Positions 12,101-19,345 of a DNA stretch of 24,713 nucleotides are shown piece after piece. Source of the stretch: a virus (taxonomy: Duplodnaviria; Caudoviricetes); the IMG/VR virus record IMGVR_UViG_3300030392_000027, positions 1 through 24,713 of that record; one strand, written 5' to 3'. The position numbers were made by a program, and so were the translations under genes. Within the stretch, counting starts at the first letter, position 1. Each line of letters begins with the position of its first letter. Below the pieces are notes generated by a model. That model made no database searches, was not told the DNA's origin, and worked only from the letters and a program-made list of their open reading frames with translations.

Positions 12101-14403
12101 TTGGTGGAGCAATCGAGTCAGCACCAAGAGAAGCTGTATTTAAAAAATCTTTAAGGAAAACATTTGGAGATGCAGAAGCAAAAAGATTATATAAATTAAC
12201 TGATGAACAACGAAGAATAGAAATATACGAAAACTACAAAGCATTTGATGATACTGTTGCTGATACTAAAAAACCTTTTGCTGATACAGAGGGTGCTCGT
12301 AGAGCTGGAGCTAATAGTTTAGAAGCTACATTAGATTTTAGTCGTGGTGGTTCATCAATTCGGTTAGCTAATAATTATCTTTTATTTTTAAACGCAACTA
12401 TGGAAGGTGCTAAAGTTCCATTCAGAGCTCTTGGAATTGATTTAACACCTGTTATTAGACCTATACCTATAGAAAAAAGGGTAGCAAATGGACCACTTTT
12501 TGAATTTGGAAGTACAACTGAACAATTAAAAAAATACATGACACTTGGTATTAATAATAGAGGTATAACAGGAAAATCTTTTGATATAGTAGGTGGTGGA
12601 CCTAAAATGGTAGCACTAAGAGTAGGAAGTGCTGTAGCTGCTTATTACTATATTATGGAAGAATGGAATAAGTCTTTTAAATTTAATGGAACAGCTTTGT
12701 ATTATGATGTTCCTGAAGAAGTAAGATACAACAGTATAGTTTTTATGTTGCCACCAGATAAAGATGAAAATGGTGATTTAATTCTTGACCCAATAACACA
12801 ACGCCCTAAACCTAAGTATTTAGTTATTCCTCATAGATTAAGAGAATGGAATATGTTATTTCAATCAGCTACGCTTGTTTCAGAAGCATTTGATGACACA
12901 GGTATTGATACAGATATGAGCAAATTCTTTTATCAAATTTTTAAATCGTCATCTCCTATTTCTGAAATACCTGCTCCTGAAATTTTTACAACTGCTGTAG
13001 AAGAAATTAGTGGGTATGATACTTGGAGACAAGCTCCAATTATTTCTGAAGCAGAAACTGAAGGAGCATTGCAAGACCAATACGATAAATCAACATCTAA
13101 AACAATTCGTGAAGCAGCAGGTGTTTTTGAATCATTACCTGTTCCTGAACCATTTATGGATGTTATCGGTAGTCCTAAAAGATTAGAACATTTATCTGAA
13201 AGTATGTTTGGTGGAGTAGGAACTTTAACTACATCTTTTGCTGATTACATATATCAAACAATTACAGATATAAGTGAAGCAGATAATCCTAGACCTATGA
13301 AAGAACAGGTCAAAAAGTTTAGAGAAGAAATGAATCAGACAGAACGTACTGAATTTATTATGAAATTAGATGATAAAGAATATAAAGAATTTCAAAAAGA
13401 ATTAAAAGAACCAGAAAAAGGTATTCCGTTTTTTGATGCTTTAGGTAAGTCATTTAATCCACAAAGAAGTGGTGCTATATTTTTTGGTAAACAAGAAAAG
13501 CTACAAGAAGAATTTGGTTATTCAGCTAAAGATACAAGTAATGCTATAAAGTTAGCTAGAGAAGTTAATTTTGAATTAAAATTAGAACAAGATGAAAATG
13601 ACAAAAAATTAAGTGATTGGAGAAATGGACAAAGAGGAAAAGATGTTTTGTCTCCTTCTGAATGGCGTGAGGCTCGTTCTGCTAAGTATGATAAATATGA
13701 AGGTGCAACAATAGCTATACAAAAAGAATTTAAAAATTCTGTACAAGCAGGTGCTCCAGAAGAAAGAGAACAATATTATGACCAATTATATAATGGAGCA
13801 AATTCTAGTAAGAGTGGTGTTAATTTATTAATTGCAGAATTTAAATCTATTAAGTTAGAAGAAACACCTGACTCATCAGATTGGGATAAATACAATGCAG
13901 CTAGAAATGATTTTAAAGAAAACATTAGATTAAGGTCAGAAGCACAAGGTGATAATACTTATAATGATTTTATAAGAAGTCTTGAAGCAGATGATACAGA
14001 AACAGAAAAAATGTATCAAAAAGCAAGTGAACTTTTATCTGAGTACTGGAGTATAGGTAACAATATTGATAATTTATATGATGCTGGTTTTAGTGCTAGG
14101 CAACCTCAAATAGCACAACAATGGAATGATTATTTAAATGCTGATACAGGAACACAAAATCAAATAAGACGTAGTAACCCACAAATAAATACATTAGTTA
14201 AAAGACGTAGCGAATTAAGAAAACTATATGTTCAAAATCAAGCACCTATGAATGCCCCAAATGGAGTAGATGAAACTTTAGCTTTTTGGTATGGTGATTT
14301 TTATAGTCCTGTAACTCCAGGAGGTAAAGAAGTAATAAATAGAATTTATGGCAGAGCTCCATCAACAACAGCAATTTCAAACGTAGGGCTCATTCCACGT
14401 TGA
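9145..14403 (+). CDS. Large internal virion / DNA-ejection-type protein with an LPD38-like region (1752 aa)
   Basis: Motifs LSPVFWVRNMLID, LEATLDFSRGGS..RLANNYLLFLNATMEG and YYDVPEEVRYN..YLVIPH resemble large polyvalent phage proteins; Cys-free. Confidence 0.7.
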   Translation: MPHIPGHQYTPREKLSYGRTSQPVTPPIQPIAPPVQPQPVQEDGGFMSNIWNEYLQPGLETAVGLPGVKQTLQGLEAIQQRAVIPAVSRLIEPLPIRFEETPGAPEVPWYDIPGQYGRGDVTFNVDQYVTPEGKFSPAALADQLLLKNPVVGIPNIALEVLGENLNRDFDIFEPETRRSQNVQKEIDKQEQITGKPLTQRERRLIEEDLYKQPPGVRGLLEEAPWFALPPARAARASAQAARTGALGAKSPTARAALRATEIALKPVELIEEGLAKVIEAPFRAVGKGISATSRSTNRVINLPQLNNLTQRALIYGDNIIRDKAFVGVSGSALRASDKLRLINKSFERKTGVQNRFNIEPKEVDGKTDLFLTINDDAVIPDRIRIRTNEELANLPPERFVAKQRQDEFLDTLETPIGQKEIENFNLNPRPEDMTFESYQASLAQSPVGNRLEAISNSINSSKVKRKLVQGGDKAYETFKKRITDRFPSVGSADWLVDFFGKSHDSAWIVRFVSDIQARGANISDKLGLTESLQNLAVTLNNSLNRGTDRASRRLYNFKKNSLDPLVKQGINATDVDHLIKALRFSEIKKKFPDREPPKAFEKQNGKTDPLGDNPNKKINEMTGGSTNIDDALEKGTDINGVLLREKYSPEKRARIKQTVEEYQEMYRAQRQELLDEGIIDLNEFNALRDSYVNYAPINYVDSFDISPKVRFNNKTPNDTNIVDTGINSLTNQLHKDAVVESMFGGRFAASLVKHEITIQQNRATRDIAKLYKEEFGLKDVSENFVTKVEDSSGRLTGEVILKKPGYNQKEKTGYFTFFEDGKRFVFGDIDGTEVPKLLWDSVNGRNGLALKGEKEFNHIIAMTNGWYRSMYTTLSPVFWVRNMLIDSVTVAIKGGVLPHEVGRDLISNFIAIVKGTETKSAEFMRASGGWTGGGFTGDSKVLNKMKRSVADVDQTENATFITSTKHLRNILSQNVFQTGANIFRRVGGAIESAPREAVFKKSLRKTFGDAEAKRLYKLTDEQRRIEIYENYKAFDDTVADTKKPFADTEGARRAGANSLEATLDFSRGGSSIRLANNYLLFLNATMEGAKVPFRALGIDLTPVIRPIPIEKRVANGPLFEFGSTTEQLKKYMTLGINNRGITGKSFDIVGGGPKMVALRVGSAVAAYYYIMEEWNKSFKFNGTALYYDVPEEVRYNSIVFMLPPDKDENGDLILDPITQRPKPKYLVIPHRLREWNMLFQSATLVSEAFDDTGIDTDMSKFFYQIFKSSSPISEIPAPEIFTTAVEEISGYDTWRQAPIISEAETEGALQDQYDKSTSKTIREAAGVFESLPVPEPFMDVIGSPKRLEHLSESMFGGVGTLTTSFADYIYQTITDISEADNPRPMKEQVKKFREEMNQTERTEFIMKLDDKEYKEFQKELKEPEKGIPFFDALGKSFNPQRSGAIFFGKQEKLQEEFGYSAKDTSNAIKLAREVNFELKLEQDENDKKLSDWRNGQRGKDVLSPSEWREARSAKYDKYEGATIAIQKEFKNSVQAGAPEEREQYYDQLYNGANSSKSGVNLLIAEFKSIKLEETPDSSDWDKYNAARNDFKENIRLRSEAQGDNTYNDFIRSLEADDTETEKMYQKASELLSEYWSIGNNIDNLYDAGFSARQPQIAQQWNDYLNADTGTQNQIRRSNPQINTLVKRRSELRKLYVQNQAPMNAPNGVDETLAFWYGDFYSPVTPGGKEVINRIYGRAPSTTAISNVGLIPR

Positions 14404-14446
14404 CAACACATGTATACTATAAATTAAATTATATGAGGTATTAATA

Positions 14447-15262
14447 ATGGTTAATCAGGCAGAACAAGACAATACAAGTACCCCTGAAGTTACTCAGGAC
14501 AATAATAATGGAGACACACTAGTTGATGTAACTTCAGAATTTGAAGGAGCTGATACTTTTACAGATACTTCTGCTCCTACAGAAGAAGTAACTGACACTC
14601 CCCCACCACCTGAAAATACAGAAACTTCAACAGAAACACCAACAGAAACACCTGTTGAACCTGTAGCCGAACAAGCAAATACTAGTACAGAAACTCCTCC
14701 AGTAACCCCAGTACCTCAAGAAGACACTCAAACTACAGAAACTAGATTACGAGAACTTGAAACTAAAAATGCTGCATATGAACAACAGCAACAGCAGTCT
14801 CAACTTCAATCACAAGCTGGGCAATATGCACAGCAATTAGAAAAACAAGGTTATTTGCCAGACCAAGCAAATCAAATTGCTACTCAATGGATGGCACAAC
14901 AAAGTCGTGAAACACAGTTAGCACAACAACAGCAAGACCAAATTAGATATGTTCAAGGTCAAGCTGCAGCAGCAGAACATTTTGCTACTAAATATGACTT
15001 GAAGTTAAGCGACCTTGCAGAATTAAAAAAATATGACTCTCCTCCAGCTATGGAAGAAGCAGCTAAAAGTATTCAAGCTAATAGAGCTAAAGATGCTAGA
15101 ATAGCAGAACTAGAAGCAAAGTTAGTTCCACCACAGAGTTTTGACAGTAGTCAAAGCACACCTGGTGCTTCTAATAGTAACGAGAGTTGGTTAGACAAAT
15201 ACAATTCAGGTGATAGGTCACCGAATGCACTTGCTGCAGCACGAAGGGCTACAGGTTTATAG
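14447..15262 (+). CDS. Capsid scaffolding protein (putative)
   Basis: Acidic Thr/Glu/Pro-rich N-terminus, Gln-rich coiled coil, directly upstream of the capsid gene; GAGG SD. Confidence 0.75.
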   Translation: MVNQAEQDNTSTPEVTQDNNNGDTLVDVTSEFEGADTFTDTSAPTEEVTDTPPPPENTETSTETPTETPVEPVAEQANTSTETPPVTPVPQEDTQTTETRLRELETKNAAYEQQQQQSQLQSQAGQYAQQLEKQGYLPDQANQIATQWMAQQSRETQLAQQQQDQIRYVQGQAAAAEHFATKYDLKLSDLAELKKYDSPPAMEEAAKSIQANRAKDARIAELEAKLVPPQSFDSSQSTPGASNSNESWLDKYNSGDRSPNALAAARRATGL

Positions 15263-15303
15263 GGTAGTAGTTGTTTAACAAAAACAGCAGCACAAAGGGC
15301 TAC
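15236..15303 (+). repeat. 17-nt direct repeat GCAGCAC(G/A)AAGGGCTAC straddling the scaffold stop codon
   Basis: Copies at 15236-15252 and 15287-15303, 16/17 identical, 51 nt apart. Confidence 0.85.
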
Positions 15304-15344
15304 TGAGTTAATTAAAATTTAAGAATTAAATCAGGAGGGCTATC

Positions 15345-16217
15345 ATGGCTCAGACATCAACAACTGGAAATTTAGAAAATGCCCAGAGAATAATACTTAG
15401 TTCAGCTAGGTATACAGAAGAACATAATGCACCTGCATTGGCACTTATAGAACAATTTAGTTTACCTAAAGGTGCTAAGACAGTTACTGTTCCTAAAGTT
15501 GGCTCAATGACAATGAGTGACCTACAAGACGGAATAGACATTATTGACGAAGAAGATATCGGAATGACAACAGTTGACCTTACAGCTAGTGAGGTTGGAG
15601 CTAAAGTTATTCTTACAGATAAACTTGTAAGACAAGCAGCTGACAATGTTTTCTCAATTATTGGAAGACAGCTTGGTGATGGAATGGCTCGAAAGAAAGA
15701 CAATGATGTCATTGCTCTTTATACAGGATTAAATAGCGCAAGTAACTTTGGGGCTGACGGTAGAAGCATGACTGCTGCTAACGTACATGCAATTATTTCT
15801 AACGCTAAAGCAAACAAGTTTGGTTCTCAGTTATATATACTTCACCACCCAAATGCTATTGCAGCTCTATCTAAAGAAGCAGCAACAACTGCAGGCAACA
15901 ACGCTGAGATTACATCAGGTTGGTCAGCAGATTTGCTATCTAACTTTTATAGTGGTCTACGACCAATTAATGGTGTACCAATTTTTGAAGATGGAAACAT
16001 TCAAAAGGATGGAAGTAATGACTCAGGGTATGGTGTTATTGCTGACAAGACTGCATTAGCAGCTCTTACTAGCGTAGAAACCAGAACTGAAAGACAAAGA
16101 GATGCTTCTCTTAGAGCTACAGAAATTGTAATGACAGCAGACTATGGTGTCTTTGAATTAGATGACACTAAAGGAGCTGCAGTATTGTTTGAAATTGGTG
16201 ACTTAGCAACTACATAA
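15345..16217 (+). CDS. Major capsid protein (HK97 fold)
   Basis: 290 aa; GAKTVTVPK, QLGDGMARKKDNDVI, ILHHP, INGVPIFE and ADYGVFELD pattern; strong AGGAGG SD; follows scaffold. Confidence 0.88.
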   Translation: MAQTSTTGNLENAQRIILSSARYTEEHNAPALALIEQFSLPKGAKTVTVPKVGSMTMSDLQDGIDIIDEEDIGMTTVDLTASEVGAKVILTDKLVRQAADNVFSIIGRQLGDGMARKKDNDVIALYTGLNSASNFGADGRSMTAANVHAIISNAKANKFGSQLYILHHPNAIAALSKEAATTAGNNAEITSGWSADLLSNFYSGLRPINGVPIFEDGNIQKDGSNDSGYGVIADKTALAALTSVETRTERQRDASLRATEIVMTADYGVFELDDTKGAAVLFEIGDLATT

Positions 16218-16230
16218 AGTAGAGGTATAA

Positions 16231-16632
16231 ATGGCAAATATAACTGAACGAAACAAACAAAAAGTAGACTTGGCTAATGCTGGTTTTGCTATGAAATATA
16301 TAGATGATTGGCAAGCTAAAACTGTTTTATTTAGACATAAGGCTAGTGTAAATAGCGAAGGTAAAATTAGTGGAGCAGTTGGTACTACTATAACTGGAGT
16401 GCCAGGCAACCCTGATTATGTACTTAGAAAAGCTAAAATTGGTTTGTTTCCTTGGAAACCAGAAGAAAGTTGTACGTGCCAATGGTGCAGAGAAACTGAT
16501 TGGAAAGCTCAAGAACCTACGACTATTAAAGGATTCTGTAATTCCTGTGGATTTGAAGCAGAAGCTAAAAATAGTTCTGGTATTGGGGCTAAGTTGGCTT
16601 TTCATAAGAAAGCTGAACACCCTGATGTATAA
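16231..16632 (+). CDS. Zinc-finger protein (133 aa)
   Basis: CTCQWC and C2H2-like CNSC...HKKAEH; GAGG SD. Confidence 0.75.
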   Translation: MANITERNKQKVDLANAGFAMKYIDDWQAKTVLFRHKASVNSEGKISGAVGTTITGVPGNPDYVLRKAKIGLFPWKPEESCTCQWCRETDWKAQEPTTIKGFCNSCGFEAEAKNSSGIGAKLAFHKKAEHPDV

Positions 16633-16633
16633 T

Positions 16634-16740
16634 AGAATCCTGAAAGTTGTAAAGATTGACCGAGGCTTTCAGGGTTCTTAAAATAAAATCGGTTGGTCGC
16701 AGGGGTAAACCCTGTAAATAAATAAACCTTTAGGAGGTTT
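16634..16740 (+). promoter_or_regulatory. Structured RNA leader: H-type pseudoknot, hairpin and SD-occluding hairpin
   Basis: Stem 16634-16648/16664-16678; loop 16654-16663 pairs with 16689-16698; hairpin 16699-16715; AAACCT/AGGTTT hairpin 16724-16740 overlaps the SD. Confidence 0.7.
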
Positions 16741-16743
16741 GAT

Positions 16744-17484
16744 ATGTCTTTTAATCCAGTTCAAGGTGGTCGATATGGTTTTGAAAAAATAACCACGTCT
16801 GACCAACGACAAGTTCTCGGTGCAGAAATGGCGTTCCCTGATGGCAGAAAGTTTCGTTACGTAGCTAACGGAGGAACTGCAGTTGCAGAAGGTCTGGCTG
16901 TAGCTTCAGAAGCTCCAGCAGGTAATCATGATGAAGACTTGGTAATTACAACTAGTCCTGCAGTAGGTGCCACTACTATTGGTATTACATTGGGTGCTAC
17001 AGCAGCAGCTAAAAATTTGTATGCAGAAGGATACTTATTCTTTAACTTAGCTAGTACTACTCCACATGAAATGTACAAAATTAAATCTCATCCTTTAATT
17101 GCATCTACTGGTACTGGAACATTTACAATAGATGAACCTGATGGATTTCAGACTGCAATAACTGCAGGTACTGATGCAGCAGGTCTTATCAAGAGTCCAT
17201 ATAAGGACATTGTTGTTGCTCCTGCTGCTGTTGCAGGTAGATTTGTTGGTGTAACTGCTGCTGACCTAGAAGCTGACTATTATGGTTGGGTTCAGGTAGC
17301 AGGTTTAGCTACTGCTAAAATTGATGGTACTCCAGCAGTTGGTACATTAGTAGGTGCAAGCTCAAACCACGCAGGTCAACTACTTGCTGTTGCTGCTGAC
17401 ACTACTCCTGCTCTTGGACGACTACATGGTAAAGCTGGTGTGGACAATGAGTTCCATACTGTAATGTTAATGAATCTATATTAA
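16744..17484 (+). CDS. Putative capsid decoration/cement (minor capsid) protein
   Basis: Ala/Gly/Thr-rich; DGRKFRYV and YYGWVQVAG motifs typical of proteins following the capsid gene; AGGAGGT SD. Confidence 0.65.
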   Translation: MSFNPVQGGRYGFEKITTSDQRQVLGAEMAFPDGRKFRYVANGGTAVAEGLAVASEAPAGNHDEDLVITTSPAVGATTIGITLGATAAAKNLYAEGYLFFNLASTTPHEMYKIKSHPLIASTGTGTFTIDEPDGFQTAITAGTDAAGLIKSPYKDIVVAPAAVAGRFVGVTAADLEADYYGWVQVAGLATAKIDGTPAVGTLVGASSNHAGQLLAVAADTTPALGRLHGKAGVDNEFHTVMLMNLY

Positions 17485-17485
17485 A

Positions 17486-17848
17486 TTGGATTCTGTTAAA
17501 CTTTGGACACCTCAAGGTTCTACGTATGTAGGCGGCAATACTGCTGGCTATAACGGAAAAACTGGGGTGTCCATTGTTGTGCATACGTTTCAATTTAATG
17601 ACCCAGAAACAGGTCGAGGTCAGGTAGTTAAGATTCCTGCTGACCCTAGTATTTCTAAAGCTCATATAGAAGATATGGCAGCTCAAGCACTTGAAAACTT
17701 TTTAATCGAGTGTAGAGTTAAAGACAAAAAGAAACCTATTACTTCTGAGCAAAAGAAACAAATAGGTAAGCAGATAAAAGAATTTAAAGAATACGCAGAG
17801 AAACGTAGAGAGAGTACAAACAATAGAATATATTATAAAGGAATATAA
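17486..17848 (+). CDS. Hypothetical protein (120 aa)
   Basis: Fills the gap in the operon; TTG start uncertain. Confidence 0.65.
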   Translation: MDSVKLWTPQGSTYVGGNTAGYNGKTGVSIVVHTFQFNDPETGRGQVVKIPADPSISKAHIEDMAAQALENFLIECRVKDKKKPITSEQKKQIGKQIKEFKEYAEKRRESTNNRIYYKGI

Positions 17849-18049
17849 ATGGTCATTGAAAATCAGGCAGATAATGATTTTAATTTAACAACTGAAGATA
17901 TTAATGCAGCGTTTCAAGCTCATCCACAAGCTGCACAAACAGCACAAATAAATTTGTTAAGAAGATTACTTAACAATAAAGATGAGCAAATAGCTAATTT
18001 AAAAACAGAGATGGACAACTTGTTAGCTAAAGGAATTTCTGATAAATGA
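17849..18049 (+). CDS. Small coiled-coil protein (66 aa)
   Basis: AAGGA SD, TAAATG coupling, heptad pattern. Confidence 0.7.
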   Translation: MVIENQADNDFNLTTEDINAAFQAHPQAAQTAQINLLRRLLNNKDEQIANLKTEMDNLLAKGISDK

Positions 18050-18058
18050 GGTTAAGAT

Positions 18059-19345
18059 ATGCCTGTACAGGGAAGAACGAGAAAACAACTTAGACAGTCT
18101 ATAGGTTTTAATCTAGGGGCATTAAAAACTGGTACTGCTTATGATGCAGGTTCAACAACTACATTAATAGATACTAACCTTATCGGTGGTGATGATACTT
18201 ATAACGGTAGGTGGATTATAGTTTCTGATACTAGTGATTCTAGTAATGTTGAAACTAGGCTTGTTAGTGACTATACAGCATCAGCTTACAGGTTAACATT
18301 ACAGCAAGCATTATCTTTTGCTACGGCTGCTGGTGATACATACGAAATATATAATGAACCATATGACCCTGAGATTATTAATGATTTTATTAATCAAGCT
18401 GTTGTAGACGTAACAGGTCAGGCATATGACCCAATAGAATATCCTGATATGTCTAGTTCTCCACACACAGCTTTGTTTGGAGATGGAAGAACTTTAAGGT
18501 TTGATATTCCCAGTAACATCTCAATTATTAATCGTATTTATTATAGAAGTGCTGTTACTTCTACTATCTTACACAGTTGTAATTCTGCATTTGATGAAAC
18601 TATTGACTCAGACTTTACAGTAACAGTAGATACAGAAGATAAAAAACAAGGCACAGGTTGTAACAAGTTTGTTATTGCTGCTGGTGCTAGTGCTGGAGAC
18701 ATAGCAACTGACTCAATAGTTAGTAAAAATATTAGTAAATATGATTACTTAGAATGTTGGGTTAAAAGTACAGTTGCTACTTCTGCTGGTAACTTAAAGA
18801 TATTACTTGACGATTCTGCTTCGTGTGCGTCTCCATTAGAGACGTTATCTGTTCCAGCCTTATCAGCAGACACATGGACTTATGTACGCATCTTTTTGGC
18901 TAACCCAGAACTTGATACAGCAATTATATCTATAGGATTAGAATATGATTCTGACTTAGGTGCGTGTCAAATACGATTAGATGATATTAAAGTAGTTAAA
19001 AACGATACTGCTGTATTTCAAATATTTCCTAAACATTTATGGAAGATAGACAGAAGTGCTAGAGATTTAATTTTAAATGATGGTGCTGAATCAGAAGTTG
19101 GTTACAGTATGATAAAGCTATCAGGTGGAGACAAGCCTGCATTGCTAACTACTGATACATCTACAACTGAAATAGACGATTCATATATTATAGCTAGAGC
19201 TACAGGATTAGCGTTTGCTGCAGCATCAGGTGGTCCAAGTACAGACCCAGACGCTTTACGACAAGCAGCAGCTTTCTGGTTTGGATTAGCAGAACAAGCT
19301 AAACGTGCGTTCCCATTATTAATAACAGGTAGAGCAGTTGAATAA
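18059..19345 (+). CDS. Putative head-tail adaptor (tail tubular A-like) with inserted beta-sandwich domain(s)
   Basis: N-terminal TRKQLRQSIG, INDFINQAV, C-terminal helical YIIARATGLAF; internal jelly-roll-like ISKYDYLECWVKS..WTYVRI..IRLDDIKV; synteny. Confidence 0.6.
   Translation: MPVQGRTRKQLRQSIGFNLGALKTGTAYDAGSTTTLIDTNLIGGDDTYNGRWIIVSDTSDSSNVETRLVSDYTASAYRLTLQQALSFATAAGDTYEIYNEPYDPEIINDFINQAVVDVTGQAYDPIEYPDMSSSPHTALFGDGRTLRFDIPSNISIINRIYYRSAVTSTILHSCNSAFDETIDSDFTVTVDTEDKKQGTGCNKFVIAAGASAGDIATDSIVSKNISKYDYLECWVKSTVATSAGNLKILLDDSASCASPLETLSVPALSADTWTYVRIFLANPELDTAIISIGLEYDSDLGACQIRLDDIKVVKNDTAVFQIFPKHLWKIDRSARDLILNDGAESEVGYSMIKLSGGDKPALLTTDTSTTEIDDSYIIARATGLAFAAASGGPSTDPDALRQAAAFWFGLAEQAKRAFPLLITGRAVE

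Follow-up and report, generated by a model that had tools for sequence, protein, structure and literature searches.

A conserved RNA pseudoknot of about 85 nt precedes the predicted capsid decoration gene in the 24,713-nucleotide stretch of Caudoviricetes DNA that we analysed (the window), and the same element is common to a large group of uncultured ocean phages. Covariation supports both of its interleaved stems, no Rfam family matches it, and the model of the downstream protein has a decoration fold. Together these results bear out a sequence-only reading that had proposed an undescribed cis-acting RNA pseudoknot on the mRNA strand in front of a decoration gene. As to its role, we favour, with a probability of roughly 0.38, the explanation that the pseudoknot and the hairpin abutting it act as an exonuclease roadblock, which would stabilise the decoration message without a phage protein.

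The pseudoknot in the window

All helices of the proposed pseudoknot leader were found again on the plus strand at the same coordinates, with the same stems, loops and G-U counts:

16634-16648, plus strand: stem 1 (S1), 5' strand; pairs with 16664-16678, 15 bp, 3 G-U
16649-16653, plus strand: loop 1 (L1), GUAAA, 5 nt
16654-16663, plus strand: stem 2 (S2, the pseudoknot stem), 5' strand; pairs with 16689-16698, 10 bp, 3 G-U
16664-16678, plus strand: stem 1, 3' strand; begins with the G of a U-G wobble
16679-16688, plus strand: loop 3 (L3), UAAAAUAAAA, A/U-rich, final base A
16689-16698, plus strand: stem 2, 3' strand, U/A-CGG...
16699-16704/16710-16715, plus strand: hairpin P3, 6 bp, 1 G-U, loop GUAAA; directly abuts stem 2
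16723-16730/16734-16741, plus strand: weak hairpin over part of the SD AGGAGG (16732-16737), -6.1 kcal/mol

The window pseudoknot has no L2. Computed energies, for the duplex or hairpin, were -20.2 kcal/mol for S1, -11.0 for S2, -9.6 for P3 and -6.1 for the SD hairpin. The leader lies just after a stop, as the earlier reading had it: the upstream stop occupies 16630-16632, a second in-frame stop 16633-16635, and stem 1 begins at 16634. The stretch TGATGTATAAT at 16623-16633 contains a perfect -10 hexamer that overlaps the upstream stop and is kept in two loci (L011 and L024) where it is noncoding.

Taken singly, the window sequence is only moderately unusual, because candidates with two 9-bp stems are common both in dinucleotide shuffles (reached by 107 of 2000) and in the window, whose plus strand has 18 of them; a stem S1 of at least 12 bp with a stem S2 of at least 9 bp was reached by 6 of 2000 shuffles. 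The folding z was -3.45 on the plus strand against -2.35 on the minus strand. No second copy of the element was found in the window, where the next best score of the RNA model was 8.5 bits. It was the comparative evidence, rather than single-sequence statistics, that proved decisive for accepting the structure.

Conservation and covariation

We collected 80 viral loci solely by their downstream protein (70-94% identity), and the element was parsed in 79 of them; the sole miss (L048) failed the SD filter, with the motif visible in its sequence. The U-G pair at the top of stem 1, the L1 bases GUAA and an A-U or U-A pair at the junction were present in 79/79 parsed loci, and CCG and CGG each in 78/79. 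Stem S2 was fully paired in 69/79 and had at most one mismatch in all 79. The last base of L3 was A in 75/79, and in 146/152 elements of the tree set described below. Over the family, L1 takes the nearly invariant form GUAA(A/C/U). Since GUA and CG(A/U)G were the anchor letters of the parser, the conservation counts for these letters are circular, and many of the 79 loci are near-identical. Among 1250 cells in the same loci, 289 were G-U and 5 were A-C, which, together with the strand difference in folding z, upholds the claim of selection at the RNA level on the mRNA strand.

Pair counts were taken from an alignment of 37 rows, comprising the window and 36 of 46 unique elements, 10 near-duplicates having been dropped. 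Of its 842 cells, 95.8% were paired, against 22-41% for slid controls. Two-sided change was seen in 13 of 23 pairs (7/8 in S1, 5/10 in S2 and 1/5 in P3), and none of 500 shuffles of this alignment matched any of the five covariation measures. We also placed 152 elements, admitted on near-complete pairing of stem S2, on a tree built from their upstream 300 nt. At the junction pair, each side underwent 12 changes, of which 12/12 were joint and compensatory, swapping A-U and U-A; for the other stem S2 pairs, 15/20, 6/6, 5/6 and 9/15 changes were compensatory. By contrast, 618 non-paired column pairs gave a mean of 2% and a maximum of 57%, the latter for two adjacent columns. Homologs thus do carry compensatory changes in stem 2, a point on which the sequence-only reading had let its proposal depend.

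With two interleaved stems, each supported by covariation, the element is an H-type pseudoknot. The top 6 bp of stem 1 covary family-wide up to the invariant U of the U-G wobble, and the lower part is lineage-specific; the 5' strand of stem 2 carries CCG and an A/U adjoining the junction. Because the length of stem 1 (P1) and that of L3 have a nearly fixed sum, comparing the two lengths is uninformative. The invariant bases cluster at the S1/S2 junction, the pattern that a tertiary core would give, and H-type geometry predicts that loop 1 occupies the major groove of stem 2. Two parts of the original description needed correction. The stem of the abutting hairpin P3 is indeed kept with covariation, but its GUAAA loop is not family-wide, varying in length and sequence. 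The SD-masking hairpin is present in the window but in only 70 of 144 unique elements, about half of the family, and a conserved SD-masking switch was rejected on this count.

Because the compensatory pairs and the bias of G-U over A-C cells (289 versus 5) require a folded plus strand, a role at the DNA level, whether as an internal sigma-70 promoter or as a recombination linker between gene modules, is scarcely probable. The window does contain TTGACC-17-TAAAAT at 16656-16684, matching 10 of 12 consensus positions, and decoration alleles are swapped right behind the element. Of 144 elements, however, only 26 have the promoter pattern, and the spacer lengths do not peak at 17; the swapping of modules is more readily explained as a side effect of a conserved island. 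Hexamers resembling TATAAT, located 12-30 nt 5' of L1, were found in 31 of 144 elements, against 3 and 2 in control windows; this excess likely reflects one clade and the TAA stop.

Distribution and placement of the element

A scan of viral contigs by the motif alone gave at least 119 loci (about 230 estimated). In 112 of them the next gene was a homologue of the same downstream protein, with 33-94% identity among full-length ones; in the remaining 7 of the listed 119 our script called no ORF, and the sequence shows the same type of start. When the pattern was used without the P3 sequence, 107 of 119 matches listed lay in the capsid-decoration context, and none of the other 12 had both stems. 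The matches listed by these two scans come from 35 and 23 of the 64 parts of the viral collection. Among loci chosen by the capsid protein, 77/79 contained the element, and the other two end 55 and 96 nt past the capsid gene. With a divergent decoration protein as the query, the RNA model matched 29 of 49 loci; the 20 non-matching ones were the distant loci (30-38%), and in most of those compared the decoration gene came directly after the apparent end of the capsid gene. None of 6 loci with distant decoration homologues matched the model. A pattern run on a genome collection was too unspecific, with about 2600 matches. The RNA model recognised 0 of 100 tested among 120 loci; the lone Dehalococcoidia match from it is due to chance.

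Other structures occupy the equivalent position in some relatives. In L349-L366, a different two-hairpin leader lies about 50 nt upstream of a distant decoration homologue (for example L356:1860-1975); it has an invariant AAGCCAAU loop and two-sided change in 5 of 15 predicted pairs (9 sequences), and no Rfam match was found in the 4 loci tested. Judged by sequence comparison, it is a candidate second uncatalogued motif. A possible third leader, about 100 nt upstream of the decoration homologue in L367, consists of a 5-bp hairpin with a 7-nt loop complementary to sequence further downstream, as seen by eye in a single sequence type.

The element was 5' of the decoration start in 101/101 loci, and its end was 14-30 nt before the start codon in 100 of these. 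The distance from the end of stem S2 to the start codon was 27-51 nt (144 elements), stem 2 never included the SD, and the spacer from P3 to the SD varied from 1 to about 18 nt. The upstream stop, on the other hand, was found anywhere from -118 to +96 relative to L1 and in all frames (101 loci), and in 9/101 the upstream ORF, taken as the longest open frame and perhaps mis-called in a few cases, entered L3 or crossed the whole knot. The placement of the stop just 5' of stem 1 in the window could hint at recoding, by stop read-through or frameshift, that fuses the upstream and decoration proteins. The probability of this is close to nil, and as a family-wide role it is refuted: besides the variable stop, the upstream and decoration frames stand in mixed relation (33/31/37), the decoration frame is open across the knot in 0/101 loci, and double stops occur.

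Neighbouring genes and translational control

Among the matches listed, the element has a single context, in which the major capsid gene is followed by a small Zn-finger gene, the element and the beta-tulip decoration gene. The genes in the window are as follows:

15345..16217, plus strand: major capsid protein (PHROG 267, Pfam PF25209)
16231..16632, plus strand: upstream protein of 133 aa, assigned to no known family; the N-domain is conserved and carries CxCxxC, and a C2H2-like finger at the C-terminus is optional
16744..17484, plus strand: putative capsid decoration (cement) protein of 246 aa, acidic; predicted beta-tulip fold with an inserted beta-barrel (about residues 57-150)

The model of the downstream protein (pLDDT 87) matched capsid decoration chains through VIA with Z of 9.7-12.2 overall, namely 12.2 to HFTV1 8qsy (rmsd 2.5, 112 aligned), 10.1 to XM1 7kmx (rmsd 3.5, 118 aligned) and 10.1 to phi29 gp8.5; Foldseek alone gave no match to this model at E<=0.001. 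Its fold and its place near the major capsid gene predict that gene 16744-17484 encodes a beta-tulip capsid decoration protein, in agreement with the function first ascribed to it. Such decoration trimers occur in 1:1 stoichiometry with the capsid. The decoration proteins are acidic (median net -11.5, pI 4.6; 34 sequences). The upstream protein, which is mildly basic, is found together with the RNA in 106 of 107 listed pattern matches; its family comprises 105 clusters at 50% identity, with Zn motifs and no Pfam match, and two loci (L056 and L346) have a canonical RNA core behind an atypical upstream protein. A fold search with it gave nothing at Z>=5. Its weak rows at Z 2.1-2.5, a lead only, include lambda gpFI and small ribosomal-protein chains, and it is possibly a packaging chaperone.

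We then compared the RNA with its neighbours. Decoration proteins diverge to 27% identity while the RNA core stays fixed. Over 103 loci, RNA similarity correlated with the upstream DNA at rho 0.49, in part plain linkage, with the decoration protein at rho 0.10 (0.19 for its first 45 residues) and with the capsid C-terminus at rho 0.07. In 15 of 101 pairs, the RNAs were at least 93% alike and the decoration proteins less than 50% alike. Decoration alleles of 33-94% identity are exchanged just behind near-identical elements (window 16634-16752 and homologues), which marks the element as a module boundary, and in RNA-library contigs the window-type element runs on into other decoration alleles.

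These comparisons bear on translational control of the decoration gene, a reading that we hold to be possible but doubtful. The element would be an operator bound by the decoration, upstream Zn-finger or capsid protein, or else an enhancer or standby site that serves host 30S or S1, and it might be coupled to ribosomes as they complete translation of the upstream gene. Its steady position before the start codon, the one gene family downstream among the matches listed and the weak SD-masking hairpin in 70/144 elements all suit this role, and the tandem G-U pairs and invariant junction bases suit recognition by a protein. Operator pseudoknots upstream of the initiation site and an affinity of S1 for pseudoknots are documented (PMC10931766, available text). 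Because leader pseudoknots are established as operators and S1 ligands, and because the basic, Zn-motif upstream protein is a candidate binder, translational control stays close. Nevertheless, near-identical RNAs stand before exchanged decoration proteins, which are acidic, the variable spacer between P3 and the SD is poor for steric repression, ribosomes cross the knot in 9/101 loci, and the S1 of the likely host is of a short type (30/41 genomes).

Two further features of the window were noted. At 15240-15310, the capsid leader partly repeats the last codons of a scaffold-like gene, giving a short G+C hairpin in the close relatives of the window only. Between divergent ORFs, about 1.4 kb of AT-rich DNA at 453-1849 has no clear genes and carries a long imperfect inverted repeat near 1445-1515 and a hairpin near 1620-1655, resembling an origin or a packaging region.

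Relation to known RNAs

Rfam 15, searched in gathering and E-value modes, gave no match in the window or in 20 related loci (best 14.3 bits against 39). In the same loci, no family consensus of the SAM-II/V, preQ1 or guanidine-III riboswitches matched, nor did a covariance model of twister, pistol, hatchet, HDV-like, hammerhead or glmS RNAs, so the earlier impression that known riboswitch and ribozyme cores are not resembled has held. The best Rfam look-alike was PhotoRC-II (RF01717), a marine phage leader that shares ACCGAG with the element, in a hairpin loop ahead of an A-rich linker. No description of the motif was found in the literature within our coverage, which left out most subscription journals. 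A 2023 catalogue drawn from the same viral collection lists 8,495 candidates (PMC10690425, available part), among which the element may be an unnamed one. With this catalogue compared by motif strings in 4 of its 6 supplements, from which they were absent, we regard the element as a new RNA family of a known kind, the phage mRNA leader pseudoknot, with a candidate function.

Two of the functions first suggested lost ground here, given the lack of an Rfam match, the location of the SD outside stem 2 and the contigs that span L1. One is a ligand-sensing riboswitch of the H-type triplex kind, which is very improbable. SAM-II and preQ1-I are H-type aptamers with an L1-S2 pocket, and the conserved bases of the element lie where such aptamers build it. 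However, the start codon lies 27-51 nt beyond stem 2 with P3 between, and stem 2, a helix of 9-10 bp, is predicted to form ligand-free; neither a conserved alternative pairing nor an Rfam match was found, and the gene downstream is structural. The other, a self-cleaving ribozyme of an undescribed class cutting near the conserved U-GUAA, is quite improbable. The compact knot, the invariant unpaired G-U-A-A, the conserved junction A and the independence from phage proteins would fit it. On the other hand, it has a single conserved single-stranded stretch and no Rfam family match, cleavage within L1 would deprive the upstream ORF of its stop in 9/101 loci, and at least three RNA-library contigs span L1 uncut, DNA carry-over being possible.

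Cis-acting processive antitermination, as by B. subtilis EAR or HK022 put, would let polymerase read on into the head-closure and tail genes; we consider it improbable. A conserved host partner would suit an invariant core that does not depend on phage proteins, and more than 7 kb of same-strand genes lie downstream. EAR differs from this element in size and architecture, and the element matches no Rfam family. In the available text on EAR, it too is an intercistronic cis-acting RNA of a long operon (PMC7858274). The element, however, is mid-operon, its overlap with the upstream ORF is tolerated, and the sole terminator-like match on the plus strand within 14300-18200 is inside the decoration gene.

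Operators are among the closest analogues, and one of them is the autoregulatory pseudoknot of T4 gene 32 (PMC10690425). In general terms, the T4 element is likewise an H-type pseudoknot 5' of the RBS of a phage gene, followed by an A-rich stretch. Our element differs from it in a conserved 5-nt L1 and an extra hairpin; moreover, the gene 32 product is a cooperative single-strand-binding protein, whereas the decoration protein is acidic and does not co-vary with the RNA. Of the suggested operator of this type, therefore, the pseudoknot directly 5' of the RBS stands, and the proposal is weakened by the acidic decoration fold, by an RNA that does not track the protein and by the loose distance to the start. 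The rpsO/uS15 and alpha-operon/uS4 operators also place a pseudoknot with a conserved U-G pair in the leader, and the mycobacterial rpsO knot is likewise upstream of the initiation site (PMC10931766, available text). Unlike in these, the regulated gene is not ribosomal, and the pair adjoining the U-G is not a fixed C-G (G-C 65, C-G 50, U-G 20 and other 17, of 152).

Likely host

Among 401 Dehalococcoidia genomes, 5 contained decoration homologues and 3 capsid homologues. A prophage-like region in a 1.36-Mb contig (G110:C4, about 795000-817000; L455, L456) is syntenic with the phage, with identities of 56% for the terminase, 40% for the portal, 48% for the capsid and 37-54% for four downstream genes. 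From this one region, in the class that was searched, Dehalococcoidia are likely the hosts, and the region offers a host lead for the whole phage group. It has the same gene set with a 5-nt gap before the decoration gene and no knot; as this relative manages without it, the gene order does not require the element. The RNA model gave 0 matches in 151 Dehalococcoidia genomes. RNase J was found in 54/61 Dehalococcoidia genomes and an RNase E/G match in 0/61. For protein S1, the first ~350 of 516 model positions were matched in 30/41 genomes, none over the cut-off, indicating a short type.

A candidate exonuclease roadblock

We prefer the exonuclease roadblock over translational control, since divergence of the decoration protein leaves the RNA core unchanged and upstream ORFs can cross the knot. 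The stronger form of this reading, a natural, protein-free xrRNA of a bacterial virus that halts host RNase J and leaves a stable, translated sub-operon mRNA for the decoration protein, we rate as unlikely. In such a scheme, the late phage transcript would first be cut endonucleolytically upstream of the knot, in a host whose mRNA decay would rely on 5'-to-3' RNase J. RNase J would digest the short upstream gene together with the variable lower end of stem 1 and then stall at the knot, which stem 2 and groove contacts of loop 1 would keep from unwinding. The product would be a long-lived mRNA beginning about 80-110 nt before the decoration start codon, which could supply decoration protein near the capsid stoichiometry, assuming that capsid-level amounts are needed. 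The same knot could also protect the upstream capsid message from 3'-to-5' decay.

Several observations argue for the roadblock. The fold is under selection, with covariation in both pseudoknot stems, its helices are stable, and its invariant bases gather at the S1/S2 junction as a tertiary core would have them. The core is independent of neighbouring phage proteins (rho 0.10 and 0.07 for the decoration protein and the capsid C-terminus). The free position of the stop and the ORFs that run through the knot suggest indifference to translation, which fits a barrier needed only once the upstream ORF has been destroyed, and the loose distance between stem 2 and the start would be of no consequence. 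RNase J is present in the class of the likely host, where nothing matched RNase E/G.

Other observations weigh against the roadblock. Its prior is low, as pseudoknots in bacterial and phage leaders mostly serve as operators, enhancers or riboswitches. The syntenic relative in G110 has no knot, the host assignment comes from one prophage-like region, and in the subset of capsid gene leaders compared, no conserved structure of this kind was seen. At least three RNA-library records from two studies span loop 1 intact, DNA carry-over being possible. RNA-library contigs cover the capsid-decoration stretch far above the first 15.2 kb, a contrast that ranks no explanation because the runs were selected using that stretch.

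Known xrRNAs come from eukaryotic viruses, and their hallmark is a ring around the 5' strand (PMC8374639, available part); here only the presence of a pseudoknot is established. In the dianthovirus xrRNA, the pseudoknot is required and unwinding of P1 is tolerated before the block forms (10.1101/262683, available part). Plant-virus and flavivirus xrRNAs share with our element a compact, pseudoknot-dependent RNA inside a longer viral RNA, the likeness here extending to pseudoknot presence only. According to the available parts of these sources, some xrRNAs lie in protein-encoding subgenomic RNAs, and one blocks RNase J1 in vitro (PMC8374639, 10.1101/262683, PMC5760640); a flaviviral pseudoknot xrRNA stops purified RNase J1 through its fold alone (PMC5760640, available part). 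By contrast with xrRNAs from eukaryotic RNA viruses, as far as these sources describe them, our element lies in the mRNA of a dsDNA phage and has a 9-10 bp stem S2 and a stacked 3' hairpin. If real, a phage xrRNA would define a new class of fold and, as far as the literature was searched, would have no precedent in phages.

Implications

The element is an uncatalogued RNA family with unusually clean covariation, an easy target for in vitro work, in abundant uncultured marine phages that likely infect Dehalococcoidia. An unrelated, covarying leader before distant decoration genes suggests that this position repeatedly draws RNA control. If the element is instead an operator or enhancer, it would be a new way of matching the decoration protein to capsid number. 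If the element does block RNase J, resistance to exonucleases through RNA structure, so far described for viruses of plants and animals, would reach beyond eukaryotic RNA viruses to phages. The element would then offer a portable mRNA stabiliser for RNase J-containing bacteria, and it would explain how a mid-operon protein is made at capsid-level yield from a single late transcript.
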